Source: an uncultured Roseovarius sp.
GTDB lineage: Bacteria; Pseudomonadota; Alphaproteobacteria; Rhodobacterales; Rhodobacteraceae
Assembly: GCA_951812895.1 (NCBI GenBank)
Contig: OX638333.1
Span: 112,366 to 176,365 of the forward strand
Reading direction: 5' to 3'
Length of the DNA stretch: 64,000 bases
Positions 13,354 through 47,628 of this stretch are shown here, in pieces. The position numbers were made by a program, and so were the translations under genes. The notes under the pieces are model-generated. The model was given only the letters and a program-made list of their open reading frames with translations. It was not told where the DNA came from and made no database searches. How positions within the stretch are numbered: position 1 is the stretch's first letter; every line of letters begins with the position of its first letter.

Positions 13354-13354
13354 T

Positions 13355-20600: not shown

Positions 20601-20613
20601 ATGGAGAATAACA

Positions 20614-27279: not shown

Positions 27280-27439
27280 CGTCGATCCTTTCGGTTGTTT
27301 CTAGTTTTTCGCGGGTCTGTTTTGTGCGTTCGGACTTCTTGCCGGAACTGCGGGCGCTGAACCACGTAGCCGCCAAGGCGATTGCCCCGGCGATGTACGG
27401 CCAGAACTCGGCAATCAGTGAGGAAATCAAGCCGGTCAT
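27215..27439 (-). CDS. i-spanin-like protein
   Basis: N-terminal TM plus charged helix; coupled to endolysin. Confidence 0.65.
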   Translation of the reverse strand: MTGLISSLIAEFWPYIAGAIALAATWFSARSSGKKSERTKQTREKLETTERIDDAIHGDSSNLGWRDRLQQRDK

Positions 27440-30498: not shown

Positions 30499-33164
30499 AG
30501 CTCCGGTGCTTCATCGACACAAGTCAGGGTGAACTGCAGATCGGAACGCGACTGCATCCCCACCACGATCATGCGTCGGGTTTCTTCATTCAAAGGGCCA
30601 ACCGCTGCGAGAATTCCTTCGTCGAGCCCGGTTGCAGAAACGGGTGCGGCAAACTCAAGCCAATCGGTCTCGCCGGTCGTTCCGGTCAAAGTGTGCGTGG
30701 TGCGGGTGTTGTTCGTGCGGTTCAAAATAACGCCGGTCTTGGCTCCGATGAGAGCCACGTCAGTTTCGGTTTCCAGATTGGTCACATCTTCGAAGTAGTC
30801 CTCGAAATACACCTTCACCTTGTCGTCCAGACGGATGCGCGTCACGTCTCCGTCGTTGTCTGTTTCAAAGTCCACAATTCGGCCCTGGCCCATACGGCCT
30901 GTCATCATGTCATGCGTGAGCCCGATCAATGAACCCCTGCGGCAGACAATTGCTGAAGATGGGGCTTCAAAAGACCAGAACGCACCACGCAACTTGGCGC
31001 TTTCAAGATCGTAAGCCACACGCTCTTCTACTTCGGCCACAGTGACCAGAGGGTCGAATGTGACCTGCTCCACCCGTGCCGATCCCTCGTTTTTTGGGTC
31101 CGGCCAGACGGTGATTTGTCTGCGTTCGTAACTTCGGTCTCGGTCCTCGAATGTGGCTCGCATCCCGTGTGGCAGCATTGGGAAGGCCTTTTCCCATCGC
31201 ACATCCGCGGCGTTTCTTGGCGTAAACAACTGCACAGGTGTTTCGGCGGACCGGTCATAGTCCCGAATTACGCCCCAGATTTCACTTTCATAGGGTCGGG
31301 CATACCCCGCGGATGCAATGACGCGCGTCACGTCTTTGACAGACTCACCCTCGAAAATCGCGTTGGCCTCATAGCCCGCCGATGCACAAGCGGTGCGCCA
31401 TGACACCAAACCGTCATCATCGACAATGGCTTCGGGCACAGGGTCGGCGTTCAACATACCCGCAATCACATCGCGGTAATGTGGGGCCGGATTCGACGAA
31501 GTCACCCAATCGACCCAACCCGATCCGTCCCAATCCTGTGTGTAGCCGGACGCAACAACGCTTAAGTTCTCAACCGACTTGTTGCGAGCCCGGATCGCAA
31601 TGAGGGCCAAACCGTCCCGGGCAACCGGTGCTTCGTTACGAATGCTGACACCGCGGGCTAAGATCACGTTGTTGGCGATCCCGTCCTGATCTTCCTGTAT
31701 CTCAGGTCCCACACCAGTCTGATACCAGAATGGATCCTTAACAGCGCCACCGATGGTGTAATTCGTGTCTGAATATTGTGCTGATCGGATTGCGTATCCG
31801 CGCTTAATCTCTATCTCATAGCGACCCTTTGGGAATGTAGCCGTGTCGAGGTAAATCTTGGCCTCGTAGCGATCCATGCGAACGTTCTGGATTTTGGTCG
31901 ATCCGAGATTGTCCTTGTCCATCCAGTCATCGGAACCGCTGCCCTTGTCGAAGTCACCATGTGAGGTGTATGCGACAGACGAGGGTGCCGCCGTCTGTTC
32001 CTTGGTGGCGATACGCGCCTCGACCCACCCCTTCGCCTCTGACGCCGCTTCTGTTACCGACGGGCTGTCCTGCCAGATAAGCTGGATCGTCGCACGCTGT
32101 TCCGAGATATCGGCAGCTTCGTAGTGCAGTTCCGGCAAGTTGGTCCAAGTGGTTTCACCTGCAGGGCGAATGCGGAGCCGAAACGGGATACGCATCAACT
32201 CTGTATCGGATGCCTTGCGGTGCAAGCCTTGCGGCATAACGATCTGCAACCATGCTTCGTCGGGGGATTCCCTGGTGGCGTATTGCAGAGGTTGGGGAAG
32301 CGCGTCGTCGAAGCTGCCCGTCGCACTCTCAAGAACCGTACCGTCGTCGCCGCTGACCGTGTGCCCGACCAACTCGGAGCGCAGGGGTTCCGCGCGTGTC
32401 TGACGGGTAACCAATGTAAGTTTTGGGTCACCGGCCCAACCTTCGCGCGTCTCAAATTCAACACCGGACATATCGCCGATGGCCGCATCTTTGATCTTAA
32501 TGTCCGCCAGTTGGTGCGGGCCTGCCAGACCGACCACGACTTCAACCACCTCGTCGAAGCCGGAGAAATAAGTGAATGGCTCGGCCAGAAACGGCGGGTA
32601 GACTTTACGAGTTCCCACAACGCGCGGGATCGAACCGTTTTGGCTCAGAACGTTCCCCTGGGCCGCTGCGGAACCGCGTTGTTCGGGCTTCGGGCCTTCT
32701 GGCGCCGGATCGAGTGTTGGGGTGCCAACAAGTGCACTGATCAGCGTTGCACCGGAAAAACCAACAACGCCGGCCAAGACATTTGCGAAAACAACGTTTC
32801 CCGCCGTAAGGCCACCCAGAATAGTACCGGAAGCGATACCACCTGTGACGGCCGTAAGTGCAATCGCCGCCACAATGGCGAGCGGGTTCTTTTCGCCGCC
32901 ACCACCCATAGGGGGCGCGTGGAACGTCACCTCAACCCTTGTGCCGTTGGCTAACTTGGCTTTCGGTGTCACGAGATGCCAGGCACCGCGCGGAACGACC
33001 TCGTTTTGTACGCATATCACATCATGCTCATGCCGGGGCCAGCCCTTGGGCAGGCTTTTGACCAGGGCCACCATTTCGGCCAATGTGGTGCGTTCCGATA
33101 GATAATAGGTATGCGGCGCGAGCGACAACATCGGCTCGCGGTGGACCGCCATGATCTTAGACAT
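30489..33164 (-). CDS. Tail tip / host-specificity protein
   Basis: IPRVVGTRKVYPP, TSSNPAPHY; follows NlpC/P60. Confidence 0.85.
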   Translation of the reverse strand: MSKIMAVHREPMLSLAPHTYYLSERTTLAEMVALVKSLPKGWPRHEHDVICVQNEVVPRGAWHLVTPKAKLANGTRVEVTFHAPPMGGGGEKNPLAIVAAIALTAVTGGIASGTILGGLTAGNVVFANVLAGVVGFSGATLISALVGTPTLDPAPEGPKPEQRGSAAAQGNVLSQNGSIPRVVGTRKVYPPFLAEPFTYFSGFDEVVEVVVGLAGPHQLADIKIKDAAIGDMSGVEFETREGWAGDPKLTLVTRQTRAEPLRSELVGHTVSGDDGTVLESATGSFDDALPQPLQYATRESPDEAWLQIVMPQGLHRKASDTELMRIPFRLRIRPAGETTWTNLPELHYEAADISEQRATIQLIWQDSPSVTEAASEAKGWVEARIATKEQTAAPSSVAYTSHGDFDKGSGSDDWMDKDNLGSTKIQNVRMDRYEAKIYLDTATFPKGRYEIEIKRGYAIRSAQYSDTNYTIGGAVKDPFWYQTGVGPEIQEDQDGIANNVILARGVSIRNEAPVARDGLALIAIRARNKSVENLSVVASGYTQDWDGSGWVDWVTSSNPAPHYRDVIAGMLNADPVPEAIVDDDGLVSWRTACASAGYEANAIFEGESVKDVTRVIASAGYARPYESEIWGVIRDYDRSAETPVQLFTPRNAADVRWEKAFPMLPHGMRATFEDRDRSYERRQITVWPDPKNEGSARVEQVTFDPLVTVAEVEERVAYDLESAKLRGAFWSFEAPSSAIVCRRGSLIGLTHDMMTGRMGQGRIVDFETDNDGDVTRIRLDDKVKVYFEDYFEDVTNLETETDVALIGAKTGVILNRTNNTRTTHTLTGTTGETDWLEFAAPVSATGLDEGILAAVGPLNEETRRMIVVGMQSRSDLQFTLTCVDEAPELWT

Positions 33165-33165
33165 T

Positions 33166-33570
33166 TTAGGTCAGATATCTCCGATAACCGCAAATGCGGT
33201 GTGCGATTGAGTAATGCGTTGCGGGCACAAGACAGGACGCGGTCGCTGTTTCCGTGTGCAACACCTTGCCGCCGCCGGCGAAGATCCCGACATGTGACGC
33301 AACCCGCCCCATTGTGCTGAGCATCAAAACCGCATCGAACGGTTGAGGTTCTGATACGCCCACCCAGGGATCAGCATTTTCGCCGCGCTTGATCGCCCGA
33401 ACGATCCGCATGGTCTGCGTGGCGCTCACCTCCCCGTAAGCGGGTAGTTCGACCCCAAGTTCCCGAGCGTAGATCAGCCGAAGCAACCCCCAGCAATCAA
33501 CACCCGACATGTCCCGACCGCCGTCAACGAAAGGCAGGCCGACATAGGCAGCGATGTGGGGGCTTACCAC
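33166..33570 (-). CDS. NlpC/P60 tail protein
   Basis: YVGLPFVDGGRDMSGVDCWGL, HVGI, VLHT. Confidence 0.9.
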   Translation of the reverse strand: MVSPHIAAYVGLPFVDGGRDMSGVDCWGLLRLIYARELGVELPAYGEVSATQTMRIVRAIKRGENADPWVGVSEPQPFDAVLMLSTMGRVASHVGIFAGGGKVLHTETATASCLVPATHYSIAHRICGYRRYLT

Positions 33571-34076
33571 CAAAGACCCGGGCAAATGTCTTCGGTCGCG
33601 CGAATGTAGGGCCACGGTTCGGTCGCGTAGTCGCGAAGGGCTGCACGGGCTTTCACCTGCAGCACATCAACCGAAACACTGCGAAGCGAGAATTCCTGCA
33701 GCGCATAAATCGGTGATGGCGTGACGCTTTCGACGCGAGGACCTACGGAGATGTCAAAATCCGCCGTGCTGATCAGGTAAAGCGCGATCTTCGCCGGGGT
33801 TATCGCCTTTTCAAGCGCCCGGCCGATTTCCCGGTCAATGTTCTGCACGGTGATTTCTGTAAATGTGGCGTTCTCGTCATCCGTTGCGGGTTTGGCGTCA
33901 AATACGATCCCCTTCCATGTCTCGCCGCCCCAGATGTAATCCACATTGTCGGCAACCACGCGAATTGGTGTGGACAGGTTGTCGTGTTCGACCTTCAGAA
34001 AGGCTACCAGAGCATGCGGCGAGTGCGCCGCGTCCAGATCGGCCCGTTGCGTTGTGGTGACAGTGCGTTCGCTCAC
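33564..34076 (-). CDS. Minor tail protein (DUF1833-like)
   Basis: LKVEHDNL..PIRVV, ITVQNIDREI. Confidence 0.8.
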   Translation of the reverse strand: MSERTVTTTQRADLDAAHSPHALVAFLKVEHDNLSTPIRVVADNVDYIWGGETWKGIVFDAKPATDDENATFTEITVQNIDREIGRALEKAITPAKIALYLISTADFDISVGPRVESVTPSPIYALQEFSLRSVSVDVLQVKARAALRDYATEPWPYIRATEDICPGLWW

Positions 34077-34483
34077 CCCATGACCCCAAAGCGATCTGGT
34101 GGTGCTAGTTGAACCGTCCCGCCGTTTCCATCGTCAACGTCACGTGGCGTGCGATCATAGACAGCATCGTAAAGCGTGACGGCATCGCTATCGTCAAAAA
34201 GTGCCGTGTACACAGCATTCGCGGAAGTGGCGGGATCACCAGCGAACGTAACTTCAGCCAGAATGGTAACCCCCGGTGCGGCAGCACGGTATAGTGCTGC
34301 GTCTTCGACCGTGATGCGAATATAAGTTAGAGCCGCGATACCGTTCATGACCATTGGCGTGCCATCAAAACCGGCCAACCCCGTTCCTTGATCGTTTACC
34401 CGACCGGGATCATTTTGAGCAAAGAACCCCACCAGCGCCGGAACATCTGAAATGTGTATGATCGCATCAATGTAATCGGTCAT
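34073..34483 (-). CDS. Hypothetical protein, possible fibre chaperone
   Basis: 136 aa directly downstream of fibre-like gene. Confidence 0.6.
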   Translation of the reverse strand: MTDYIDAIIHISDVPALVGFFAQNDPGRVNDQGTGLAGFDGTPMVMNGIAALTYIRITVEDAALYRAAAPGVTILAEVTFAGDPATSANAVYTALFDDSDAVTLYDAVYDRTPRDVDDGNGGTVQLAPPDRFGVMG

Positions 34484-34492
34484 GGTCGCCTC

Positions 34493-35710
34493 CTATGTGC
34501 CGGACAGGGCTTCAAGGTCGGTGTTCGACAGGCGTGTGGGGTAAAAGACAATGTTTTTGATCCACATGCCGGCGTTCCCACCTGCCGAGTTTGGAACCGT
34601 CGCTCCAATGCGACCTGCGGAGATGGTGGGGGGTACGGTGCCGGAAGTATCCGTGGCCACAATATTGCCGTCGCTGGTGATCGCGTAATCGTTGGCTTTA
34701 TAGGCCATTGCAGTTTTTTTGAACTGTCCCGTATCCGAAACCCCTGTAGATATTCGCGCCTGCGCCACGCCGCCAACCGCTGAAAACAGAAAGAGGTTTT
34801 CGCCGCTTCCATTGTACAACAGCATGCGATTGCTGCCGTCGGCGCCAATGGCGAGAGCGCCGCGGGCTCCGGAGGCCTGGCCGCTATCTCCGGCGAATTT
34901 CACTTCTGTTGCGATAGCCCCTTCTGTTGCCGGAATTGCAGCAAGGGCCGTGGCCGAAAGCACAGCTCGATCTGCGGCACGCGTCACCGCGGACGTTGTG
35001 GTAACGATTGGCGACGATACAAACGCTGCTTTCTCGTGCTGGGCATGGTGAACCACAACGGTCTCGCCGTTTTGTGACGTGCCGCTCGGATATATGTAAA
35101 CACTGCGACGATTGCCGGAATTCACCGGTGTACCGGTTACCGTGAGGCGTACCAACTGACCCCCATTTGGCCCAGTGCCCCAATCTTCTACCGTAACACT
35201 GGTGCTAGTGCCTTGTTGAGAGAAGGAGACAACAGCTCCCAAGCCGGACCAGGTCAATTCACCGAACACAACCCAACCGGAAGGAGCACCCAGATCGTAG
35301 AACCCGATACCGCTCTTTACCGCGTCGACATTTTCCAGAATTACGGAATATGTTTCCGCCGAGGCGGTTAGCGTGCCTGCAGATTCAATGCGGCTGCGCG
35401 CTACTGATAGGTTCTTATTTTCCAGAGAATATGCGGTTTCACCAGAAAAGATTGATGTTGCTGTGGTGATTGTGAAATCCCTGTCACCGCTCCAATCCGA
35501 ACTGGCTGAAAAGTCGTTTGAATCTGTAAGCTCATTGGTGCGCGCTTCCTCGACAAGGATACCCCGGGCCGTGCCTGTGTCGGGATCATGGTCGAACCGC
35601 ACCGCGTCAACCGCAGCCGATTGAACGACCCCGCTCGCATCGAAGTAATAGCCTGTCGAGGCACGGGTAAATGTAACCAAATTTGCAAAGCTGTCTTTTT
35701 GCAGCGTCAT
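34493..35710 (-). CDS. Head-spike-fibre-like / lectin (LamG-like) protein
   Basis: TFTRASTGYYFD, RFDHDP..RGILVEEARTN, VTRAADRA. Confidence 0.8.
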   Translation of the reverse strand: MTLQKDSFANLVTFTRASTGYYFDASGVVQSAAVDAVRFDHDPDTGTARGILVEEARTNELTDSNDFSASSDWSGDRDFTITTATSIFSGETAYSLENKNLSVARSRIESAGTLTASAETYSVILENVDAVKSGIGFYDLGAPSGWVVFGELTWSGLGAVVSFSQQGTSTSVTVEDWGTGPNGGQLVRLTVTGTPVNSGNRRSVYIYPSGTSQNGETVVVHHAQHEKAAFVSSPIVTTTSAVTRAADRAVLSATALAAIPATEGAIATEVKFAGDSGQASGARGALAIGADGSNRMLLYNGSGENLFLFSAVGGVAQARISTGVSDTGQFKKTAMAYKANDYAITSDGNIVATDTSGTVPPTISAGRIGATVPNSAGGNAGMWIKNIVFYPTRLSNTDLEALSGT

Positions 35711-36171
35711 TTATCTACTCCGAAGTTTTGATTGGCAAAGTCGAGTACAAGATCGGGGACGGCGGCCGAGGTGCCCGGAACATAGGAAGCGAACCATGGA
35801 TCGATTGCGGATCGCATGACCTGCATGGAAAGCTGAACGAAATCACCGCCCGACGCCGCCGTCATCTGGTAGGGCGGGTTGTTCTTAACGATCCGAAACC
35901 ATGCGGGATCATCTGTAAGAGGATCGCGCCAGATGAACCGGTTTGAGCCGTTTGCCAAATCATCCCTGAAAAACGCCTTGAACACCGCAAAATCCGTGAC
36001 GGACAGGTCTTCAAACGCGACCTCGAAAAGCTCAGGGTTGGCCGTAGTACGGGGCCGTTCGACAGGTTCCCCGATTTCCGGCTGAAACGACCCGCGATTG
36101 TCCATTGGACCACCGCTGTAGCGAACCGATGGGCGCAACTGGATACTTGAAGGCCAGTAGAGTGTTGTCAT
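35707..36171 (-). CDS. Distal-tail-like protein with C-terminal LVLDF extension
   Basis: After tape measure; FKAFFRDDLANGSNRFIWRDP. Confidence 0.75.
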   Translation of the reverse strand: MTTLYWPSSIQLRPSVRYSGGPMDNRGSFQPEIGEPVERPRTTANPELFEVAFEDLSVTDFAVFKAFFRDDLANGSNRFIWRDPLTDDPAWFRIVKNNPPYQMTAASGGDFVQLSMQVMRSAIDPWFASYVPGTSAAVPDLVLDFANQNFGVDK

Positions 36172-38393
36172 CAGCGCGCTACCTTGCTGGATTTCAGGCC
36201 GTACCGCGATTCAAATCCGGACATTTCACCCCGTGTTGCAGCCTTGTTGATTTCAGCGACCAGGACTTTCCGACCATCCGGGCCAGTTTGTCTGCGTTCC
36301 CGCACCTCAACACCCGGAGCGTTATTGATGATTTGAACGACAGTTCCACCGTTGGGGCTGTTCGTGTTTGCGGGTGCTGTGATGATCATTGGCTGAATAG
36401 GGGGAAACTGACCTTTCTCATGATCGAACACGGTCTCGTTTGGGTGAACAATTGATAGGATACCGCCCTTACCATCGACTCCGCCCGAACGAGGACCGGC
36501 GCCGGTAAACCCGCCACCGTCGAAGGATAGTAATCTTCCAAGACCCGGAAACGCCCCCTTTAGACCCTGAAACAGGGCCATCTTGAGGAATTGAGCCGCA
36601 AGGTTCTCCAAGATATCGACTGCATCGCCACCCTTACCGATGATGATGTCAAACAAGCCATCTATTGCGCTTCTGGTCTCCCCGGCTATGTCGCCGAGTT
36701 TGCCAGATGCGTTTTGTGCGCTTTCAATTGTTTTGTCGTATTGCTCACGGGCCAACTCGTGTGCTCTGGCGGCTTCTTCGGGATCTAGCCCAGCTGCCAT
36801 TGCATCGTTGATGGTTTTCTGTGCCACCTCCAGATTTTGCATCGCTCTAATTGTTGGATCGAGGGAGGCCATCAAGCGATCATACGCTTGTGCTGTCTTA
36901 TCGATGTCCGCAGCACTACCACGGGAACCGCCGGTTGTGGTGCGACGTAACGCAGCCAGAGCCTCTTGATTCCGTGCAAAGGCCTCACCACGTTCGCGCG
37001 CGGCTTCGACCAAAGCGTCTTTGATGACGCCGGAGAAACCGGTATCGCGGACGGTGCCCAATCTGTTTCTTTCACGCTCCGCCGCAAGCTCCCCGGCGAT
37101 TTGGACTTTGGAAGCTCCGCTGCGCAACCCCTTTAATTCGATTTCCTGCAATCGAATTCTCTGTTCTTCGGTTTCGGCTCGGGAACCAGCGGCGCCCACT
37201 TCGGCGGCGAGGGCGCGGAATGTCGCAAACGCGGTTGAAAACTTCCTGATCAGTGTGTCCGCCTGTCCCAGAACACCACTGAGATCGATGTTGGATGTGG
37301 ATAGAGCCAACGCGTCGGACTGGTCCACGGCTCCGCCTAACTTACTGACAACATCATCCATAGCATCCTGCTGGCCCTGTATCGCGGCCTCTATGTCCTG
37401 GAATATCTGAACCGATTGTTCCTGTAGGTTTAGGAATTGTTCGGTAGCACTTTGGGCTTTGTAAATATTATCAACGAATTGCAGTTCTTCATCCGAGAGG
37501 TTTTCAACACCGCCTCGAATTTCGGTGAATACGTTGGCCAGAGTTTGAAGCGCTGCAGCGGATTCCTCGGTTCCCTCGACGGTATCTAGATTGTCCAAAG
37601 CAGACTTAAGCTGTTCCGCCTCTTGTCGTGAAAGCCCCAGCTCACGTGAGAGCTGTGCGAGCCGCGCAACTTCGCCCTGACCAAAAAGCTTAAATACAAG
37701 ACCGGATATAAGGCCGCCGTCTAGTGATTCCGCGAGCGCTTCCCGAGCGTCCCGTAATTCTCGTGCAGCCTTTTCAAGCGCGATTTCGCTTTGGGCTTGC
37801 ACGAGTTCCAAAACAGAAACTCGCATGCGGCCAAACTTCTCGATCAGGCGATCAACGTTTTCGCCAGAAGCATTGGCCAGAGCGGTTTCAACGTTCTGAA
37901 GGCTTTCTTCAAGTTCATCGAGTTGTTTAGCCATGGCCTCTGAATCGGCCCCGGCGCTCAAGAGAGCGGCCCCAAGGGGGATCGCAATTGCCACGACGGC
38001 CCCCATTAACGCACCGACCGTACCGAAACCCTGGATTAATTGCGGTAGCTGCTGACCCATTGCGACGGAAGCCGCAGTTCCGGCGCCGATCTGAGTGGCC
38101 ATGTCTCCGACTTGGAAACCGAGGTTTTGTGCGGCGCCAGCACCGAGATTGAGGCGCGCCGTCGTGCTCCGCATCGCGCGCCGAAGGCCACCCATAGACG
38201 TCTGTGCGTTACGCCCGGCCCGTTGAGCCGCGCTCCCCATTCGGTCGAGCGCCTGCCCCCCGTCTCGCCCCAAACGCTCTACTGCGCTTTCGGTCTTATG
38301 AGCTTTGCGGGCCACGCCGTCCATCGCATTTTCAGCGCGTTCGGCCCCCGTTTCCATCTGCCGGGGATCAAGTGCGAGGCTTAGTTTTGCCAT
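36171..38393 (-). CDS. Tape measure protein
   Basis: 740 aa; QNLGFQVGDMATQI..GQQLPQL; FDGGGFTG..VHPNETV. Confidence 0.9.
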   Translation of the reverse strand: MAKLSLALDPRQMETGAERAENAMDGVARKAHKTESAVERLGRDGGQALDRMGSAAQRAGRNAQTSMGGLRRAMRSTTARLNLGAGAAQNLGFQVGDMATQIGAGTAASVAMGQQLPQLIQGFGTVGALMGAVVAIAIPLGAALLSAGADSEAMAKQLDELEESLQNVETALANASGENVDRLIEKFGRMRVSVLELVQAQSEIALEKAARELRDAREALAESLDGGLISGLVFKLFGQGEVARLAQLSRELGLSRQEAEQLKSALDNLDTVEGTEESAAALQTLANVFTEIRGGVENLSDEELQFVDNIYKAQSATEQFLNLQEQSVQIFQDIEAAIQGQQDAMDDVVSKLGGAVDQSDALALSTSNIDLSGVLGQADTLIRKFSTAFATFRALAAEVGAAGSRAETEEQRIRLQEIELKGLRSGASKVQIAGELAAERERNRLGTVRDTGFSGVIKDALVEAARERGEAFARNQEALAALRRTTTGGSRGSAADIDKTAQAYDRLMASLDPTIRAMQNLEVAQKTINDAMAAGLDPEEAARAHELAREQYDKTIESAQNASGKLGDIAGETRSAIDGLFDIIIGKGGDAVDILENLAAQFLKMALFQGLKGAFPGLGRLLSFDGGGFTGAGPRSGGVDGKGGILSIVHPNETVFDHEKGQFPPIQPMIITAPANTNSPNGGTVVQIINNAPGVEVRERRQTGPDGRKVLVAEINKAATRGEMSGFESRYGLKSSKVAR

Positions 38394-38679
38394 GTTCTTT
38401 TAACTCCGCCTGGTCCATTGCCTGCATCACACGCAGGAAACATTCACGCTGAACCGGCCCTGTGATCCCGTTGAAATCCGCATAGGCCTTGATTTCAGAT
38501 ATTGGGATGCCACCCACTCCGAACCCGACCTGTCGTGAGGATCGAAGTGCAATGTAGCTTCGCCAATAATAGGGGTGTTCCGGCTGAGGAAGGTTTGTGA
38601 CTTCCGGCGCGCCCTTGCGTGTCAGATACCGGAGCTCGTCATCCGAATATCTAAGCCGCCAGGACAGCGCCTCTGTTAG
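38368..38679 (-). CDS. Tail chaperone G-T extension reached by -1 frameshift
   Basis: -1 frame after A-AAA-AAC reads KLTEALSWRLRY..RSSRQVGFGVGGIPISEIKAYADF..MD to TGA. Confidence 0.75.
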   Translation of the reverse strand, partial: LTEALSWRLRYSDDELRYLTRKGAPEVTNLPQPEHPYYWRSYIALRSSRQVGFGVGGIPISEIKAYADFNGITGPVQRECFLRVMQAMDQAELKEHGKTKPRT

Positions 38680-39143
38680 TTTTTTATCGTGTTTTCGGTC
38701 TCGGTCAGAAGGTGTTCACCGGCCTTGCGACACTGTAGTTCGAGATCCGTGATCGCTTTGGCAATTTCAGGGATCACGCTGTCCCCAAGGGCTAAGAAAT
38801 GCTCGCGGTCGCACGTGATGGCCTTACCGCCGTTCAGGATGTTGGATTCCCACGTGAGGATACACGCATCGTAGAACAATCCAATTCGCTCGGAACCAAG
38901 AGACTTGGTTTTTTCATGCCGCTTTCGTGCGCGCGTTTCAGGGTCTTCCGTGGATGCGATCACTTCGGCGGCGATCCCGTGAGATAGGGAAAGTTGGTCC
39001 AAACCCATCGAATATGCGGCATTCAACGGGCCTGCTACGCGAGCGTCCACCTTAAGATAGCAGGGCTTTCCGCCTGCCAAGAAATCCGGCAGATCAGCCT
39101 TGAACTTAACAACCGGGATTTCACGATTTGGCAGGTTCAGCAT
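38676..39143 (-). CDS. Tail assembly chaperone
   Basis: Between tube and tape measure; ends ATA AAA AAC TAA. Confidence 0.8.
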   Translation of the reverse strand: MLNLPNREIPVVKFKADLPDFLAGGKPCYLKVDARVAGPLNAAYSMGLDQLSLSHGIAAEVIASTEDPETRARKRHEKTKSLGSERIGLFYDACILTWESNILNGGKAITCDREHFLALGDSVIPEIAKAITDLELQCRKAGEHLLTETENTIKN

Positions 39144-39284
39144 CTTGCTTCTTATCCTTGGCTACAAGTTGCGGTTTGCCGGAAAGGCCTAGCTCATTGG
39201 CTTCCGAATTGGAAATGGGGTCGCCCAGGCGGAACAGTTTTTCCTTGCCCTTAACGACCCCTGTGAATTGAATAGCGGCCTTCA

Positions 39285-40226
39285 TTACGACACCGCCCGG
39301 GTGATCTTGATCACCGCCTTTTCCTTCGAACTGTCGTAGTGCGGCATGATCTCGACCTTTTGCATGGCATCGCCTGCACTTAGGTCCAGCTCGGTTGATC
39401 CGAAATGACAGACCGGGAACAGAACAGTGTATTTTTCACCCGTAACCGATCCGATTGGTACGGTCACAGCAAACGAATTGTGCCGTTTGCGGGCCGCGTT
39501 GTAGATATTGAGGAAATTGGTCTCGATATAGATGTTCGCCGTAAGCTTAGGCAGGAAATTGCCCCGGCGAATGCCGCAGATTTTTTTACTGGAAAGCTTG
39601 GGTTGCCGGTCTCGCTGTTCGAAGTCGAATGCGATCTCAAGAGATTGCATGCAGTCGAGCGCGTAGCCCGCGAACTTGATGGTTCCTACGTCTTGACCCG
39701 ATACCAAAGGATCAACCACGGATGGGTCAGTGTACGTGGCACCGGTAATGGCAGACGTGGTTGCATTATCAGACCCTCTGCCCATGAGGTTCAGAGAGAT
39801 TTGCGCCTCGCGTTCGGCCTGAAGGTTGATTGACCCACTAATGGCTTCAACACCCCGGAACCGCGTCATGGTCGCCGTTCCACCAACACCGGCATTGACA
39901 GTGTTTTCGACCGTGACGGATTGTTCCTTTTTGGCGTCTTTGAGGACGTTGGTCGCCCAATCGGCTTGCAACAGTGTCGACAGCAGTTCGTCGGCCGCAC
40001 CGTAGTAGAGCGGTCCCTCGTAAGTGCCTTCGACCATGTCGATACCGTAGCCTTGACCGGTTCGGGCGCCCTTACCGGTCAAAGACTGACCGTAGAACAC
40101 ATCGGGTTTGGAACTCATACGAACGAGGTCGTGCATCGTCGAAAAGCCCGGTGTCGAGGGGGTGGTCCCGACAGTGGTTTCCGCAACAATCGCGGAACGA
40201 GTTTCAGAAGTGGCGAAGCCTGTCAT
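39285..40226 (-). CDS. Tail tube protein
   Basis: AETTVGTTPSTP, VEGTYEGPL, TGEKYTVLFP. Confidence 0.82.
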   Translation of the reverse strand: MTGFATSETRSAIVAETTVGTTPSTPGFSTMHDLVRMSSKPDVFYGQSLTGKGARTGQGYGIDMVEGTYEGPLYYGAADELLSTLLQADWATNVLKDAKKEQSVTVENTVNAGVGGTATMTRFRGVEAISGSINLQAEREAQISLNLMGRGSDNATTSAITGATYTDPSVVDPLVSGQDVGTIKFAGYALDCMQSLEIAFDFEQRDRQPKLSSKKICGIRRGNFLPKLTANIYIETNFLNIYNAARKRHNSFAVTVPIGSVTGEKYTVLFPVCHFGSTELDLSAGDAMQKVEIMPHYDSSKEKAVIKITRAVS

Positions 40227-40238
40227 GTTTGCCTCCTA

Positions 40239-40697
40239 TCAGGCCAGAGAGTAGCGCGTGAAAGGCGCGGTGATATTGGTGATCGTGAATGGTGCATCCT
40301 TGAACGACGCGGACACATACGGGTGTTGCGGCGATCCGCCGTTGATTCCGGTTGGTGAGAACCGCAGAAATGCGTCTTCGTGGCTGGTGATCGCTACGCC
40401 TTGGCTGTCCAGCGTGACGCCGTGCAGAAAGTTGATGATCGTTTCGGCGTGTTTCCGCCAAGCGGATGAGCCCTTTGCACCATCGGTGTAAATCGCCACG
40501 ACCAGAGTGCCGATATTGTCGATGCGGTTCCTCGTTCGCCCCATAGTTCCCTGCAGTCTGGCGCCCGGATTGATGGTCAACTGAACACTGTCCGCTTCAG
40601 GCGTGAATGTTTGAGCATCAAAGCCGATCTTCGTGGTCGTACCCCATTGGGAACGGAAGAAGGTCTCAACAACCTTGCGCTCTGCGTCGAGTGTCAT
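40239..40697 (-). CDS. Tail terminator-like protein
   Basis: Position; GTLVVAIYTDGAKG. Confidence 0.7.
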   Translation of the reverse strand: MTLDAERKVVETFFRSQWGTTTKIGFDAQTFTPEADSVQLTINPGARLQGTMGRTRNRIDNIGTLVVAIYTDGAKGSSAWRKHAETIINFLHGVTLDSQGVAITSHEDAFLRFSPTGINGGSPQHPYVSASFKDAPFTITNITAPFTRYSLA

Positions 40698-40710
40698 ATA
40701 GTTTCAACCT

Positions 40711-40992
40711 ATGAGATATTTACTTTTTCTTGCGCTATTGGCGCCCATTCCAGCGCGAGCCGATTTGACACACAAACAGTGTATTCGGGAGTTGCTCGAA
40801 ATAGACCTTATGCGGTCCGCAATTGTTTTACCTTTACTAGATCAACAGGGTCGTATCTTTGAAACCAAACCAAAGGGCGACGAAGCGGCGCTGTCATTCC
40901 TTCAGTCTTCATTGGACTTCAGCAACGATTTCCAAGCGCTCTACGAAGATTACTACAACTCTGTCGCCGATATCTGCGAAACGCTCCGCTAA
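40711..40992 (+). CDS. Small exported protein inserted antisense in tail operon (moron)
   Basis: Signal peptide MRYLLFLALLAPIPARA-D, two Cys; opposite strand to neighbours. Confidence 0.6.
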   Translation: MRYLLFLALLAPIPARADLTHKQCIRELLEIDLMRSAIVLPLLDQQGRIFETKPKGDEAALSFLQSSLDFSNDFQALYEDYYNSVADICETLR

Positions 40993-41393
40993 ATCTCCGC
41001 CCCATCAAACGCGGCTTGTATTTCCGCTACCGTCAAGCCCACCATGCCACTTGGGGCCTGCCCTGAATATCCGTCTTCCAAGCGCCCCGCGTAAGGCAGG
41101 TTGTTCGTAAGATAAACAACCGGAAACCCCTCAGACGCCGCATATGCAGACAAGGCCCCTTCAGCGCGCGCTATCGTTGTCTGACCACCTTTGTCGAATG
41201 TTTCCGACGTTGATAAATCCTCTGAACCAATTGACAGGTTCCAGTTTCCTTTGAACCGACCCTCCTTCACGGGTGATTTGAGGACCACGCTGCGAACTGC
41301 GTGAAGTCCAATCAGTTGTACAAACTCGTGAACATCATCGATCTTTGCGGCCAATTCGGCCTTTAACTGGATCTCGAACTGACGTGCTCTCAC
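40989..41393 (-). CDS. HK97 gp10-like neck protein
   Basis: SPVKEGRFKGNWNLS, NNLPYAGRLEDG.S.QAP.GMV. Confidence 0.85.
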   Translation of the reverse strand: MRARQFEIQLKAELAAKIDDVHEFVQLIGLHAVRSVVLKSPVKEGRFKGNWNLSIGSEDLSTSETFDKGGQTTIARAEGALSAYAASEGFPVVYLTNNLPYAGRLEDGYSGQAPSGMVGLTVAEIQAAFDGAEI

Positions 41394-41965
41394 GACAACC
41401 GTTCCCGACCGACCGCGTAGAACAACGACCCCGCCCCAAGAACGTCCTGTGTGAGCCGGATATCGAACACCCGGGTGCCAATCGTGAGCTTCCAACCTTC
41501 CTTGCAGGACGTGAACCCCTCCAACATGACTAGCGTATCGCCGGGACCAACCACATAATCGGGAAAGATATCCTGAACCGGTTTGGTTGTCTCAATCACG
41601 GCCCGGCCAGTGTTGGTCGTCGTAGTGGTGCCGTAAGGCGCTCCGGTTTCGGTGCTATAGGTTTCAGTATCAAGGACTTGCGCCGACCCAATACTTGCGC
41701 CGTAAATTTGTGTCGCAAAATCCAGGGTTACACCCGGCGCATTTGCGTTCGAATAGTAGGGCAAAGCCCAAGCCTCAATATCCGCCCCAAAAACAACGTT
41801 CTCGAAGTCCAACACCAGCGACGGGAGCGTTTCACTTACCTTGTAGGTTTCGAACCACGTCAACGGTGTCTCATATGACACGCTTGCCACGTGGATCGCA
41901 TCGGGAATAGCTTTATCAACCGCACCAAATGCTTTGGCCGCGATTTGTGCGACTGTTAGGGCCAT
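41390..41965 (-). CDS. Head-closure-like protein with internal duplicated-motif insertion
   Basis: MALTVAQIAAKAF start with GGAGG RBS; PGDTLVMLEG C-terminal part; insert with two LDF repeats. Confidence 0.7.
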   Translation of the reverse strand: MALTVAQIAAKAFGAVDKAIPDAIHVASVSYETPLTWFETYKVSETLPSLVLDFENVVFGADIEAWALPYYSNANAPGVTLDFATQIYGASIGSAQVLDTETYSTETGAPYGTTTTTNTGRAVIETTKPVQDIFPDYVVGPGDTLVMLEGFTSCKEGWKLTIGTRVFDIRLTQDVLGAGSLFYAVGRERLS

Positions 41966-42185
41966 AACGCCTCCAATTACTGAAATTCCAGCCCCAGAGA
42001 ACCCGCTGACAGTCAAAGCATCTGATCTGCTTTTGACCGGCTGAAACTTTGCCATTTTTGACCGTGCGACCCAGTCTGACTTCTATAGACGCCCGGCTTC
42101 CACATTCGCATTCCAACGGTTCGCCCGCGTATGTGCGTTGCGGCCTAACCGGTTTGTCTGAAACTAGGGGAAGGCCTTTTCCCAT
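41916..42185 (-). CDS. Hypothetical Cys-motif protein
   Basis: CECG..CFDC; overlaps neighbours, C-terminus uncertain. Confidence 0.4.
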   Translation of the reverse strand: MGKGLPLVSDKPVRPQRTYAGEPLECECGSRASIEVRLGRTVKNGKVSAGQKQIRCFDCQRVLWGWNFSNWRRYGPNSRTNRGQSIWCG

Positions 42186-43204
42186 GCGTCTGCTTCATGG
42201 CGGCGTAGTTCGTCGAGAGTGAGTTCGTTTCCCCTTCTGTCAACAAACCGGTCCAGAGACAATTTCCCCTTCCGAAACAGGGTCGCTTTCTTCGTCCCCA
42301 TCACGTCGTTCTGAAACTCAACGGGCTGCTTACGCAACCAATCGCTATAGGTCAGATCAGCCGCCACCTGTCCGTTCATGCTGGACCGTGTGCTGTCCGG
42401 CAGCCCCTGCAAGCCCATTTGCCTCCACGACTTCAGCACCGGTGCCGTGGAACTTCGGCAATTCATATGTGCCGGGGGTCTCGGCCCTTTGTCCACTTCG
42501 TAGACAAGACCGTCTCTGGCGCGGCAAATAGGACTCGTGCGTCCGTCCAGTGTCGAAAGCCACTGGACGCCCTTGATCAAGCTCTTGTTGCGTTCGTAGA
42601 GCCTTGATCGGGCCGCGTTGGCAGTATGGTTTATCGCGGTTCGAACGGTCGTTTCCGCCGACTTTCTACTGACCTCGGCAACGCCTCGTGTTGACCGTGT
42701 CCCTCGTATCACACGCACGATTTCGTCGTTTGTCTGACCCTCGATAATCCCCATCCGGATAGCGCCTCTGAGACGTCGGAACGCGGCTTCCGAAAGCTCC
42801 TTGTACCAATCCTTCAGCAATCGTCCCTGAAAGGGGCGTGAAGTTACGGCAGCAACGATTTGGTCATCGGCAGGTCGAACCATCTCAAAATTGATCGGGA
42901 CAACACGATTGAACATGTCGATCTGAAAATCAACTTCATAACTTGCCAGCGCGCCTATATCGATATGCAACTGCCCCGTCGCATCCGCATAAACGCTGTC
43001 GATGATCCGACGCAGTTCCCGAAGTAGCTTTGACTGCCTCTGCTTGCTCAGGCCGGTTAAATCGTCCCGAAGAATACGCTCCAACACTCTTGCATCAGAT
43101 TGTTTCAACGCCGCAAGGATCTTACGGACCGTTGCGTTCGAAAGTCTGTGCAACCCGATCTGATGCCTTGTCAGTGCATTTGCGATTTCGTCGTTTACTG
43201 GCAT
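42164..43204 (-). CDS. Minor capsid / head morphogenesis protein (Mu gpF-like)
   Basis: WLSTLDGRTSPICRARDG, PPAHMNCRS, TYSDWLRKQ. Confidence 0.9.
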   Translation of the reverse strand: MPVNDEIANALTRHQIGLHRLSNATVRKILAALKQSDARVLERILRDDLTGLSKQRQSKLLRELRRIIDSVYADATGQLHIDIGALASYEVDFQIDMFNRVVPINFEMVRPADDQIVAAVTSRPFQGRLLKDWYKELSEAAFRRLRGAIRMGIIEGQTNDEIVRVIRGTRSTRGVAEVSRKSAETTVRTAINHTANAARSRLYERNKSLIKGVQWLSTLDGRTSPICRARDGLVYEVDKGPRPPAHMNCRSSTAPVLKSWRQMGLQGLPDSTRSSMNGQVAADLTYSDWLRKQPVEFQNDVMGTKKATLFRKGKLSLDRFVDRRGNELTLDELRRHEADAWEKAFP

Positions 43205-43731
43205 CAGACCCGTGCTACGCCACCAGATACTCGCGACCCGGCGGTACTATCCGTAAGTCCCGATACCATGTCTCGCACGATCAGAAGGATCGGTCGGGAC
43301 GCCTCTGCATCCGTGCGATAGTTCGCAAATTCAACGTCCGCAGGTCCGGCCTTCGCCCGCTTCACGGCCTCTGAGGGGGTCACATCGGGTGTCATCGTGC
43401 CCGGTGTGGTCAACTCCCGCAACGCGACTTCAGCCGTAGCGTTTTTGATCTCAATGGGCACCTCGTCCGATGCGACGCTGTATCCGTTGCGGTCAACTAC
43501 GTCATGTCGCGGCCAAGACATTGCCTGGGTGCGTCCATTGATCGGGTATCCCTTCCAGGAAAACGACGTGTTCAGGAAGTTACTGGCGCGCCTGATCGCC
43601 TCTTCCTTGATGGCATCTGTCCCGGTCCATGCAGCACTGCCAAGTGCAGTGTGGTACGCATCCACCGTGGCCAGATCGACCAGCGCGTCTGCGTTAGCCA
43701 GACCGGTGCCATCTTCAGGCGTAAGGGCCAT
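43204..43731 (-). CDS. Head-tail adaptor (DnaT-like annotation family)
   Basis: PEDGTGLANADA, QAMSWPR, IKNATAEVALR. Confidence 0.8.
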   Translation of the reverse strand: MALTPEDGTGLANADALVDLATVDAYHTALGSAAWTGTDAIKEEAIRRASNFLNTSFSWKGYPINGRTQAMSWPRHDVVDRNGYSVASDEVPIEIKNATAEVALRELTTPGTMTPDVTPSEAVKRAKAGPADVEFANYRTDAEASRPILLIVRDMVSGLTDSTAGSRVSGGVARV

Positions 43732-44009
43732 TACTCGCCACCGATATCAACAAAGATAACGCTCGCGGCCAGATCGCGCAATTCAGCAACCACGGCAGCC
43801 TTATCGAAGACAGCGTCATGCGCTTCAAGCAGATCAATCACATCCGCCTTTTTCATCTTCGCAAGAACTTCACGGGTCAACGGTTCTTCCAAATTGACCG
43901 CAGTTCCGGCCTCGAAAAGCTCGTGCTTATCAGGGTCGAAATCCGCCTCGTTGATGACGCAGTACCCGTCTCCGCCGTCTTGCTTGATACTTATGGTAGG
44001 GGTTTGCAT
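43731..44009 (-). CDS. Small head-associated protein (HeH/LEM-like)
   Basis: INEADFDPDKHELF, KKADVIDLL. Confidence 0.65.
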   Translation of the reverse strand: MQTPTISIKQDGGDGYCVINEADFDPDKHELFEAGTAVNLEEPLTREVLAKMKKADVIDLLEAHDAVFDKAAVVAELRDLAASVIFVDIGGE

Positions 44010-44081
44010 GTCTTTCGCCTCTTTACGGTCTGATCTTAAGAAAGGGGCCACCATCGCAGCCCCTCAAAAAGACCAAATGGT

Positions 44082-45224
44082 TTAACCCATCAATGTCGCG
44101 ATGTGGGCAGGCTTGATAGCCTTTTGACCCCAAGCCAAACGAACATGGATGACGTTCTGCAAGAACTGCTTGTACAGCGCCAGCTCGAACGCGAGACCGG
44201 AACGTTCATCCACAATCGTGGTTACATCAACCGCCATGTCGCCGCCGTCCGGCATCGCAGGCGCCCGAGTTGCCAGCACGATTGCTGAACGTGCGAAGGC
44301 CACGTTCGGCGTGTAGCTGTTGCCTACCGTAATCGTAGCGTTGTTGGCCGGAGCGGCCTGAAGACCTGGCTTGCCAATATTGATCGGCGTGGTCGACAGA
44401 TCGGCATTGACGACATATTTGCGAGTGTCACCCGCAAAGGTAACAATGTCGCCCGCCAGAACAGTGCCCGAACCAGTGTCGACCGGGACAGCGGTAGTAC
44501 CCACCGCGGGCGTACCATTCACCAGATAACCGGTGCCAGTACCCTTGGTGTGGACCGTGATCGGATCGGAATGGCGAACGGCCATTTTCATGATGCGATC
44601 CGTCATGCCGTTGCGAAGCATGTCGTCAGAACCGGCCTCGTTTACCTTGAACAATCCCGATTGCTTGCCGCGCAAGTTGCCGATGGCAGCGTGACCGAGA
44701 ACAATTTGGAGATCGTTGGTGGGCGCACCATTTTCTTCCAGCACACCCAGGACATTCGCGAAGTCGGTCATGTCTGCGGCGGTGCCAAACGGTGTACTAC
44801 CGGCCGTACCTACAGCACGAGAAGCGCTGTTATAGGCTTCGGTGTGCAGATCGCTTTCGATCTCATTCACCAAAGACCGCATGCCCTGAAACGCACGATC
44901 CGCCATGATGGTCGAGAAGGTGCCGGCATTGGAAAGGCCGCGCGTTTCTTCACCACTGAAACGGATCGGAACGTGTTTGGATTTTGTGATAGCAACCGGG
45001 ATACCCTCGGTCGTATTGTCGCCGGTATCCGGTGCGTTCACCGCAGCCGTGTTATTGGCCGATGTTTCGGCGGATGTTTCCGGCACATAGACCGTTTGAC
45101 CGATGGCCGCACGCGCAACGTCAGAGTCGCGGTTCACCGCCGGGATGTAGCCCGTCAGTTCACGAGAAACCACATCAAGGGCCTCGTAGAAATCCGGAAG
45201 CAGATTTGTAAGTGTGTTAGCCAT
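44082..45224 (-). CDS. Major capsid protein (P22 coat-like)
   Basis: MANTLTNLLPDFYEALDVVSREL; Ig-like insertion; ARSAIVLATRAP. Confidence 0.9.
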   Translation of the reverse strand: MANTLTNLLPDFYEALDVVSRELTGYIPAVNRDSDVARAAIGQTVYVPETSAETSANNTAAVNAPDTGDNTTEGIPVAITKSKHVPIRFSGEETRGLSNAGTFSTIMADRAFQGMRSLVNEIESDLHTEAYNSASRAVGTAGSTPFGTAADMTDFANVLGVLEENGAPTNDLQIVLGHAAIGNLRGKQSGLFKVNEAGSDDMLRNGMTDRIMKMAVRHSDPITVHTKGTGTGYLVNGTPAVGTTAVPVDTGSGTVLAGDIVTFAGDTRKYVVNADLSTTPINIGKPGLQAAPANNATITVGNSYTPNVAFARSAIVLATRAPAMPDGGDMAVDVTTIVDERSGLAFELALYKQFLQNVIHVRLAWGQKAIKPAHIATLMG

Positions 45225-45324
45225 GATGATTTCTCCTTGTCACAGCGTTTAATTGATGGACCAGAAGTCCTGCTCTTTGGGCCATCCAGCCCCAACGTCG
45301 TCAGCATCCACTGAGTGACAAATT

Positions 45325-46089
45325 TTATTGGTCGACGACTTTCACGCCGTCAGCCATCGCCTTCCGACGCTCGCCGTGCGACAATGCATCGTATTCGCTT
45401 CGCGTGATGTTCTTTGCTCCACCGCCATCACCGCCACCCCCCTGAGCGCCGCTGCCCGATTGGCTGCGACCCTTGAGAATGTTGTCTTTGAACGGTGAAG
45501 ATTCGACGATGATTTCGAGCGCTTCATCAAAATCCGCAGGCTCACCCGGGTTGGCCTTCGAGTAGACTTGGTTGCCGCTCGCATCTTTGGCGATGATCTT
45601 GCCGTTTTCGATAGTGAAGTGTCTGCCAAATGTCGCCTCGACCATCGGAATCGGAACAGCCATCTTTTCCGCGATGAATTCGGATCGGGCGAAACTGCCG
45701 CCGATCTTCTCTTGGTGTAACGATGACTTGAGAGTTTTGTTTTCCTCAACGACCGGCGCGTATTTTTCTTCGACGGCCTTGATCGCTTCGTTCTTAATCT
45801 TGTCGACCTCGCCCGCTTCGACCAAGTCCTTGTCCTTGAAGTTCTTGACCTGTTTAACGGCCTCGATAGCCGCCGCCGGATCTTCAATCCCATCGAAAGT
45901 CTTGAGGGCCGCCTCGGCCGCCTCCTTCGCCTCGCGATGGCCTTTAGCCTCACCGTTGAGCCGTGAGATCGTGGCAACCGTTCCGGGCGCGTCGAACACG
46001 ATTTCTTTTTCTCCGTCGATGTAGATCGGCTTTCCGTCACTCACCTCGGCGTATGTTTTTCCGTCGACCTCGATTGTTTTAAGCTTCAC
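45325..46089 (-). CDS. Scaffolding protein
   Basis: MKLKTIEVDGKTYAEV, RLNGEAKGHRE, PADFDEALE, SGSGAQGG. Confidence 0.85.
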   Translation of the reverse strand: MKLKTIEVDGKTYAEVSDGKPIYIDGEKEIVFDAPGTVATISRLNGEAKGHREAKEAAEAALKTFDGIEDPAAAIEAVKQVKNFKDKDLVEAGEVDKIKNEAIKAVEEKYAPVVEENKTLKSSLHQEKIGGSFARSEFIAEKMAVPIPMVEATFGRHFTIENGKIIAKDASGNQVYSKANPGEPADFDEALEIIVESSPFKDNILKGRSQSGSGAQGGGGDGGGAKNITRSEYDALSHGERRKAMADGVKVVDQ

Positions 46090-46167
46090 GACTCTCTCCT
46101 TCGGGCGTCCGCCCGTTGCTATGGATCATCCGATCCGGTGCGCCGTTACACGTCCGTGCAGACGGCT

Positions 46168-47625: not shown

Positions 47626-47628
47626 TCG

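Follow-up and report, generated by a model that had tools for sequence, protein, structure and literature searches.

In a 64,000-nucleotide stretch from an uncultured Roseovarius sp. (contig OX638333.1, positions 112,366 to 176,365; this whole stretch is referred to as the window), comparison of sequences suggests that a siphophage-type prophage encodes one free lectin that may plug into several sites of the virion. The element in question is a module of ca. 27 residues (PWFxxY...PxLVLDFxxxx[F/Y]G) that is present once at the C-terminus of the distal tail protein (Dit) and twice within an insertion in the head-closure protein (Hc1), and that is missing from the lectin encoded directly downstream of Dit. 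The features concerned are the following (lengths in amino acids, aa; SD, Shine-Dalgarno sequence):

35707–36171, minus strand: predicted gpM-like distal tail protein Dit, 154 aa, with a core of approximately residues 1–120 followed by the C-terminal module
35719–35799, minus strand: module copy 1, PWFASYVPGTSAAVPDLVLDFANQNFG, Dit residues 125–151 (54.6 bits)
35707–35721, minus strand: putative fission junction, with GGAG SD, lectin-frame TAA and ATGA overlap
34493–35710, minus strand: predicted concanavalin-A-like lectin with two LamG domains, 405 aa, without module and without N-terminal anchor
34073–34483, minus strand: 136-aa protein, downstream of the lectin in a two-gene cassette
41390–41965, minus strand: predicted head-closure protein Hc1, 191 aa, with an internal insertion, between Ad1/MuF and Ne1
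41666–41866, minus strand: insertion of ca. 66 residues (approximately residues 34–100 of Hc1), delimited by alignment with homologues of 120–125 aa
41786–41860, minus strand: module copy 2, TWFETYKVSETLPSLVLDFENVVFG, in Hc1 (46.3 bits)
41699–41773, minus strand: module copy 3, AWALPYYSNANAPGVTLDFATQIYG, in Hc1 (40.6 bits)

A preliminary description of this DNA had reported three motif copies in these two proteins, and their coordinates and sequences proved correct: in the six-frame translation of the 64 kb, LDFx4[FY]G occurred at these three sites only (plain LDF occurred 17 times), and a hidden Markov model (HMM) built from 17 module instances returned exactly three matches in the window, with the bit scores listed above. 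In the consensus given at the time, the Y-to-P spacing of 5–7 residues needs correcting, as it amounts to 8 residues in the Dit copy. Because the DNA identity among the three copies was just 47–53%, they are not recent duplicates, yet W, Y, P, LDF and [F/Y]G were kept in all of them. Moreover, phmmer linked Dit residues 124–153 not only to both Hc1 copies, but also to the N-termini of several lectin homologues (P0086, P0107, P0009, P0054 and P0116; P and L numbers denote proteins and loci of the comparison set, respectively).

The Dit gene immediately follows the tape-measure gene and precedes gpL/K/J-like genes, in the same order as in phage RC1, and its product matched phrog_384 over residues 1–96 (E=6.8e-11), while Pfam gave no match. 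An AlphaFold2 (AF2) model of Dit alone, based on a 104-sequence alignment, reached a predicted local distance difference test (pLDDT) score of 95.9 and a predicted template modelling (pTM) score of 0.87, and a Foldseek search with this model retrieved lambda gpM (8iyk_E, TMt 0.75), the Sf11 tail (9occ_C, TM 0.60) and the T1 tip (9l9p_H). Sequence and model together identify the 154-aa protein as a probable gpM-like distal tail protein, with a predicted place in the hexameric virion ring between tube and tip. Its ORF (open reading frame) ends in ...DPWFASYVPGTSAAVPDLVLDFANQNFGVDK, with the stop codon three residues past the module, and no carbohydrate-binding domain is present on the Dit polypeptide of the window. 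The segment had been conceived as a docking strand, but does not seem to be a naked one, as AF2 predicts the module to be ordered on Dit without the lectin (helix 128–130 and hairpin strands 141–144 and 149–152, pLDDT 95–97).

As described before, the lectin gene overlaps the Dit stop codon and starts close to TFTRAS without the module. Specifically, the Dit stop and the lectin start share an ATGA (35707–35710) that places the lectin in the –1 frame, a GGAG SD (35718–35721) lies inside the Phe-Gly-Val codons of Dit, 7 nt upstream of the lectin ATG (35710), and a TAA in the lectin frame (35711–35713) immediately precedes this ATG. The SD and the ATGA coupling indicate independent initiation of the lectin, and no slippery heptamer (X XXY YYZ) is present at the junction (GGAGUAGAUAAAUGA) to allow the –1 shift required for a Dit-lectin fusion. 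Because the identical arrangement was found in independent contigs read from one long-read assembly (6 shown), these junctions are not sequencing errors. The N-terminus of the lectin ORF, which reads MTLQKDSFANLVTFTRAS, begins 13 residues ahead of TFTRAS, and the cis module that most homologues carry 10–22 residues before TFTRAS is absent.

The lectin itself gave no Pfam match, but matched phrog_5939 with residues 8–404 (E=1.8e-52, model positions 367–762 of 801). Besides itself, 131 homologues were found, with TFTRAS, FDHDP, GLLxEExRTN and a C-terminal YYPxRLS as hallmarks in their alignment consensus. The AF2 model of homologue P0009 (33% identical to the window lectin) comprised two beta-sandwich domains (pLDDT 93.8, pTM 0.89), and Foldseek placed it with CBM40 and laminin LG pairs and, in BFVD, with concanavalin A-like lectins at TM 0.80. 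Judged from its homologues' sequence and fold, the 405-aa product, previously described as a fibre, is therefore better regarded as a globular two-domain lectin, for which polysaccharide binding is predicted. The top Foldseek matches to E217 gp45 and Pa193 (TM ca. 0.4) were set aside as reflecting shared LamG domains without specific kinship, and P0043 was dropped as a short-form lectin since its start had been mis-called and the longer ORF has the motif.

Full-length relatives of the lectin carry the module in cis, in line with the statement in the preliminary description that an LDF segment often stands before TRAS in such proteins. In the homologue of cyanophage S-CAM4 the module just precedes TFTRAS (YPTIEPSLKLDFANARALDPRITFTRAS), and the same holds for many metagenomic homologues (...PWVRNPLWRNARAVPSLDLDFANNKSLTDRVTSQNLVTFTRAS). 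Rhodobacteraceae genomes contain head-fibre-like 355-aa genes reading MKVVSDLSVTS...PWFTPWN...PGLVLDFSDNSYGVGG...ISRAS, again with the module in cis, which overlap the stop of a ca. 100-aa gene (L069) or closely follow such a gene (other loci); the head-spike base and fibre genes of RcGTA (Rhodobacter capsulatus gene transfer agent) are laid out in this way, and from this layout we infer that the pair corresponds to ghsA/ghsB. In the P0009 model, the module region (residues 20–45) reached pLDDT 91–97, indicating that the module is fixed against the lectin body.

The origin of the Dit copy became apparent from a survey of the Dit family. A word-indexed homologue search with Dit returned just Dit, so that an exhaustive phmmer search was used instead, yielding 296 homologues, of which the best 150 cluster representatives were sorted into classes; against phage records, megablast gave no match and tblastn with Dit only weak ones. 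About 73 of the 150 representatives consisted of the core only, ending in ...LMRLPG, 28 consisted of core, module (P.FVADY....YG) and a domain of ca. 56 aa, and at least 21 combined core and module with a large C-terminal domain. Many of the latter are lectin fusions (P0129, P0135, P0145, P0146, P0176, P0133 and others), with P0129 reading ...PWFASYLQADSNKPPPLVLDFENGKYGLSGDRKSLNRLITTERAS.... Three representatives ended within a few residues of the module, namely those of the window, P0132 (L024) and P0134 (L179). Because the module thus forms the native junction between core and appendage in Dit relatives, the copy on the window Dit points to gene fission and not to a graft. The claim that the motif had been grafted onto two virion proteins consequently stands for Hc1, where the insertion is lineage-specific (see below), but not for Dit.

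Reading across the gene boundary, the C-terminus of the window Dit and the N-terminus of the lectin (AVPDLVLDFANQNFGVDK and MTLQKDSFANLVTFTRASTG) were colinear with AVPSLDLDFANNKSLTDRVTSQNLVTFTRASTG in P0009, and also aligned with VPDLVLDFASQVYGAGGVRKTFADLVTFARAG in the single 360-aa ORF of L021. In fact, L021 and L147 reproduced the whole tail-tip gene order of the window, but with Dit, module and lectin united in one 360-aa ORF. On sequence grounds, the window therefore appears to hold a rare case in which a common type of Dit-lectin fusion gene was split just after the module. The break point was located 1–4 residues past [F/Y]G and ca. 12 residues ahead of TFTRAS in all split cases, while the split junctions differed (ATGA overlap and –1 frame in the window, an in-frame TAG with a 60-nt spacer in L024, a 36-nt spacer in L179) and the split-form Dit proteins were just 34–37% identical.

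Two further observations concern the extended Dit forms. The commonest of these is ca. 205 aa long (P0126, P0130, P0131, P0138 and others; loci L185, L188, L190 and L198), and its C-terminal domain of ca. 56 aa is conserved (...VAASAL..IAGTY.V....GDIPATAP.G...I.GF). In the 360-aa fusions of L021 and L183, the first LamG domain is missing and the N-terminal strands (TFARAG...FDHDP...GLLMDD) lead directly into the second domain; structurally, these strands would thus seem to form part of the C-terminal domain.

The Hc1 copies have another history. Although the ORF extends to 42055, which had been taken as the gene start, the likely start of Hc1 is the ATG at 41965 (191 aa, with GGAGG upstream), in agreement with the gene call of the source assembly. 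Window Hc1 itself gave no match in Pfam, PHROG or a PDB profile search, and the PDB sequence searches as a whole were uninformative. Its closest homologues (P0123–P0125) are 120–125 aa long, lack the insertion and are 48–62% identical outside it, and two of these insert-less proteins, P0124 and P0123 (56–58% identical), matched phrog_161 'head closure Hc1' at 1.5e-5 and 2.8e-3, respectively. Synteny and these homologues identify the 191-aa protein as a probable head-closure protein Hc1, exceeding the usual single small beta-barrel of ca. 105–125 aa by the ca. 66-residue insertion. As the closest homologues are without it, this insertion is lineage-specific, and its two module copies appear from the alignment to be a true graft, in tandem. 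The related phage L014 has an Hc1 without the insert, and showed neither module nor lectin in 13.5 kb. A tblastn search with Hc1 against phage records gave no match, and IMG/VR searches with single Hc1 proteins gave no relatives.

The pairing of the motif on neck and baseplate, proposed from the window alone, was found to recur independently in phage L179. L179 and L180 represent a separate lineage with a lambda-like head module, unrelated to the window phage. In L179, Dit ends in ...PPWFAAHVPVSPITVPSLVLDFVAPGYGVDLD at its stop codon, and downstream of it a lectin of 387 aa without the module is encoded (MALEQKSLTDIVNFSRSTTG...). The head-closure protein of this phage (135 aa; Phage_attach, phrog_7787) and window Hc1 are members of different families; in the former, the module forms a C-terminal extension of 35 residues, which ends in ...QPWYGAHVAGDNLERPSLVFGFAADVHGLESLT before the stop. 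This extension shared 12 of 30 residues with the Dit tail of the same phage, without gaps (E=3e-8), and in both copies a His replaces the Tyr that other Dit proteins have almost invariably (WFAAHV and WYGAHV; L179 3637–4044 and 9001–9474), which would mean either that the neck copy arose by duplication of the Dit tail of this phage or that both copies co-adapted to one partner. In L147 and L183, phages with a fused lectin, the homologous Hc1 (104 aa in L147) ends before such an extension, and about nine IMG/VR loci with a covalent Dit appendage yielded no second module copy (E<=0.1).

Small proteins with two or three tandem modules, ending right after [F/Y]G, were found directly upstream of module-less lectins as well (L078, L023). 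In L078 (1626–1925), a 99-aa protein with two module copies just after the capsid gene precedes a 480-aa lectin in the same frame, with one stop codon between them; L073 (85–468) encodes a 127-aa homologue of this protein with three copies, at which the contig ends; and in L023 (6520–6702) two module copies are followed, via an ATGA overlap, by a lectin and then by a homologue of the 136-aa protein. The small proteins of L078, L073 and L023 matched no PHROG or Pfam family, and may be capsid-side adaptors for head lectins. A ca. 45-residue N-terminal domain (NIP.HRWY.KR.H..L.K.D.SR) was noted in the small module-bearing proteins near capsid genes. A second class of lectin N-terminal segment (LDLxF...Y.VWE) is likewise split in L176, and probably in L178.

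Some candidates were not retained. The pattern-scan match PPRLVLDFSEVDFG, in a conserved bacterial protein of ca. 425 aa whose matching part we take to be the AMIN domain of an amidase, was discarded as an unrelated gene, reverse-frame pattern matches were discarded as artefacts, and the C-terminus of a T4-like protein in L101 (17 bits) was considered a probable chance match. Separately, a 1236-aa gp7-like baseplate wedge protein on a T4-like contig (L010 2291–6001) was seen to end LamG-like (...YVWGAQLEAASSPNGYIPT...), its gene being followed, with a stop/start overlap, by the module-less lectin P0073.

The fusion and fission pattern, the independent recurrence and the fixation of the module on the lectin in cis together make docking in trans of the free lectin on the module the best reading of these data, with a probability slightly better than even; physical docking, its stoichiometry and a sugar ligand are what we infer within it. 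The lectin would originally have been the C-terminal part of a gpM-like Dit, joined to it via the ca. 27-residue module. The fusion gene would then have split 1–4 residues past the module, leaving the latter as the C-terminal tail of Dit, with the lectin translated separately from its own SD and coupled to Dit through the ATGA overlap, and a loop of the head-closure protein would have received two more module copies in tandem. As a small folded handle, the module would bind the free lectin non-covalently, the simplest pairing being that of the edge of the module hairpin with the N-terminal strand of the lectin (NLVTFTRAS). One lectin could in this way occupy two places, the neck and the tail-tip Dit ring, and the outcome would be multivalent binding to a host surface polysaccharide.

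In a broader and more tentative form, to which we would give somewhat less than an even chance, the module is a portable plug-and-socket element widely used by phages and gene transfer agents (GTAs) of Alphaproteobacteria and by marine phages, so that any carrier would be a docking site for a free lectin. With similar reserve, such carriers could comprise the Dit tail, the loop or C-terminus of head-closure proteins, and small capsid-side adaptors with two or three repeats. If true, relocating a peptide, and not a domain, would suffice to re-wire the valency and location of the adhesin, and fission of Dit and lectin would free the lectin for several sites.

Several observations weigh against docking in trans. 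In what was the discriminating test, AF2 ordered the tail of Dit alone, without the lectin, and the module may therefore belong structurally to Dit instead of forming a free socket. The commonest extended Dit class has the module before the non-lectin domain of ca. 56 aa, so that the module is not lectin-specific. Furthermore, the Hc1 copy of L179 has diverged (LVFGF, VHG), scoring just 12.4 bits with the HMM, and the co-occurrence of an Hc1 copy with a split lectin rests on two phages in which a split lectin is accompanied by a readable neck. Finally, the module-less lectins P0050 (L013), P0068 (L177) and P0073 (L010) have no module on the upstream protein, which indicates that an adjacent handle is not obligatory; the contexts of these short lectins are tandem paralogues and a T4-like baseplate.

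The order of the Dit tail in isolation and the presence of non-lectin domains after the module mean that the module is a folded unit seated on its carrier, and as such could be purely structural. It would then be a mini-domain that stabilises the Dit or neck ring, or serves as a spacer, without binding the lectin, which would attach via its own N-terminus or not be part of the virion. The very high confidence with which AF2 orders the module on Dit alone, the 28 of 150 Dit representatives with the module before a non-lectin domain and the module-less lectins that have no module nearby all agree with such a role. We nevertheless regard it as unlikely, because it leaves unexplained why the module occurs on Hc1 of two unrelated families only in free-lectin phages, and why adaptors with two or three copies stand directly upstream of module-less lectins, and because the module is confidently packed on the lectin in stand-alone lectins without Dit. 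The module copies might instead bind another partner, be it the 136-aa cassette protein, an assembly chaperone or a component of the host envelope. The 136-aa protein does travel with the lectin in three contexts, but L024 and L179 have a split Dit and lectin (and L179 the Hc1 handle as well) without the 136-aa gene, which makes such a partner very unlikely.

The split could also be just apparent, if a frameshift or readthrough by some ribosomes yielded a covalent Dit-lectin, as with lambda G/GT or with capsid and tail proteins that are extended at the C-terminus. Fused forms are the common state, and the ORFs of L024 and L078 lie in one frame with a single stop codon between them. The window, however, would need a –1 shift at GAU AAA UGA, where the slippery heptamer is lacking, and the TAA directly before the lectin ATG, together with the good SD and the ATGA coupling, indicates that the lectin is initiated on its own. 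As the junction geometry moreover varies among the window, L023, L024 and L179, and the internal Hc1 copies would be left unaccounted for, recoding seems very unlikely. Hardly any more credit, and if anything a little less, can be given to the idea that neither element is functional, the Dit tail being the leftover of a recent fission or recombination and the Hc1 insert a neutral duplication. While the mobility of the cassette of lectin and 136-aa gene (absent in RC1, present in other contexts) would fit such debris, W, Y, P, LDF and [F/Y]G persist in copies with only 47–53% DNA identity, Dit proteins with no more than 34–37% identity share the split form, and the independent gain on a second Hc1 family argues for selection. 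Docking in trans thus remains the reading that we favour.

The system resembles known ones in part. In RcGTA, the head-spike fibre Rcc01080 (GhsB) sits on the pentameric base Rcc01079, and is a monomeric, flexible, two-domain, beta-rich and lectin-like protein (PMC7296036, PMC10218006), of which a single subunit is anchored to the base by residues 2–10 and binds the capsule (PMC7296036, PMC10218006); polysaccharide binding in this lectin type has been shown for the RcGTA fibre only (PMC10218006). The window lectin is of this head-spike-fibre type, the RcGTA fibre is likewise held on its particle by a short peptide, and P0005 starts with MRIGLGLSLG, resembling the RcGTA anchor IALGLGLGL. However, the RcGTA anchor is the extreme N-terminus of the lectin, inserted in a dedicated base protein on the capsid pentons, and the module is in cis, whereas the window lectin has neither anchor nor module, the latter being on Dit and Hc1. 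The Dit-module-lectin fusions (L021/P0133, 360 aa; P0129, P0145 and P0176, ca. 540 aa) have the same Dit core, module and lectin as the window, and the fusion phages share its tail-tip order (tape-measure protein, Dit, DUF1833, NlpC/P60, J, Gly-rich protein), but make one polypeptide, and the two with readable necks have no Hc1 module, while the window has two polypeptides plus the Hc1 copies.

Lactococcal and streptococcal siphophages have 'evolved' Dit proteins and carbohydrate-binding modules (CBMs) on the neck passage structure, tail tube and baseplate (PMC6669499, PMC7533335, PMC10688798). The concept of sugar-binding modules on Dit and neck that aid adsorption is the same, but in those phages each site has its own covalent CBM or dedicated protein, the hosts are Gram-positive, sequence kinship is lacking, and a shared detachable lectin or portable docking peptide is not described. 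In the literature searched, we found no description of a single detachable lectin, nor of a short portable module on Dit, two head-closure families and multi-copy adaptors. Lambda gpM and the T1 and Sf11 distal tail proteins (8iyk_E, 9l9p_H, 9occ_C) correspond to the Dit core in fold and position, but gpM (109 aa) has no C-terminal module or appendage. Cohesin-dockerin pairs and the branched receptor-binding-protein adaptors of the Klebsiella and CBA120 type also use repeated docking sites on a scaffold to recruit separately encoded subunits. The present case differs in that a ca. 27-residue repeat lies on neck and tail-tip ring proteins, without homology to those systems and with a putative interaction.

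The genes described above belong to a siphophage-type prophage structural operon on the minus strand, running from ca. 49 kb down to 29.4 kb of the window. In transcription order, it comprises terminase, portal, scaffold, major capsid protein, Ad1, a MuF-like protein, Hc1, Ne1, tail terminator, tube protein, chaperones, tape measure, Dit, the 405-aa lectin, the 136-aa protein, DUF1833, NlpC/P60, a J-like protein and a Gly-rich protein. The remaining features around Dit, lectin and Hc1 are:

43204–43731, minus strand: adaptor Ad1 (phrog_477, PF20557)
42164–43204, minus strand: MuF-like minor head protein (PF04233)
39285–41393, minus strand: neck and tube context block (Ne1, tail terminator, tube)
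40989–41393, minus strand: Ne1 (phrog_169)
40239–40697, minus strand: tail terminator (phrog_179)
39285–40226, minus strand: tail tube protein (PF18906)
36171–38393, minus strand: tape-measure protein (phrog_1538)
30489–34076, minus strand: rest of the tail tip, whole block
33564–34076, minus strand: DUF1833 gpL-like protein
33166–33615, minus strand: NlpC/P60
30489–33164, minus strand: J-like central fibre

Phage RC1 has a tail-tip order identical to that of the window, but without the lectin cassette, and the pair of lectin and 136-aa gene, which is present in other contexts, appears from these comparisons to be a mobile cassette. Homologues of the 136-aa protein, which itself matched nothing in Pfam or PHROG, follow lectin genes directly in the unrelated phage contig L023 (4893–5390) and in a head-spike-like locus of Acidimangrovimonas (L037, 4355–4756), and the gene is absent in L024, L179 and L021. 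The protein may be a lectin-associated accessory or chaperone.

The position of the MuF-like gene (PF04233) between Ad1 and Hc1 is unusual, as it follows Hc1 in the relatives L017–L019 and lies upstream of the capsid genes in L014. A 93-aa ORF that is flanked by the Ne1 and tail-terminator genes but runs opposite to them (40711–40992, plus strand; also called in the source assembly) starts signal-peptide-like with MRYLLFLALLAPIPARADL, and looks like a moron inserted in the neck module. The window as a whole contains two complete, convergent phage structural modules (119–18566 on the plus strand and 29485–49050 on the minus strand). The plus-strand module encodes TerL (phrog_9), a portal, a major head protein, a 1073-aa tape measure, a distal tail protein (phrog_1302) and two fibres, namely a tail fibre of 1240 aa (phrog_5616) and a fibre of 347 aa; six-frame and HMM scans of the window detected no copy of the PWF...LDF module in it. 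Placed tail to tail with the first, it could represent a second prophage or a GTA-like cluster. Three genes between the two modules (24758–26347, plus strand; 27439–28143, minus strand; 20536–21375, plus strand) encode an Eco57I-type methyltransferase/restriction-like protein (Pfam), an Amidase_2 endolysin and a second putative lysozyme-like ORF, respectively.

Necks, tubes and baseplates decorated with sugar-binding modules are known, each site with its own covalent module. The window adds a clear case of fusion and fission that links Dit, a lectin and a head-closure protein. If one lectin is indeed recruited to several sites by a short peptide, this would provide a compact and sequence-predictable rule for the evolution of adhesin placement and valency, as well as a small tag that might serve for the display of cargo on virions. 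It would also account for the N-terminal segment that is conserved in the GhsB-like lectins of phages and GTAs (phrog_5939), a very large family without annotation.

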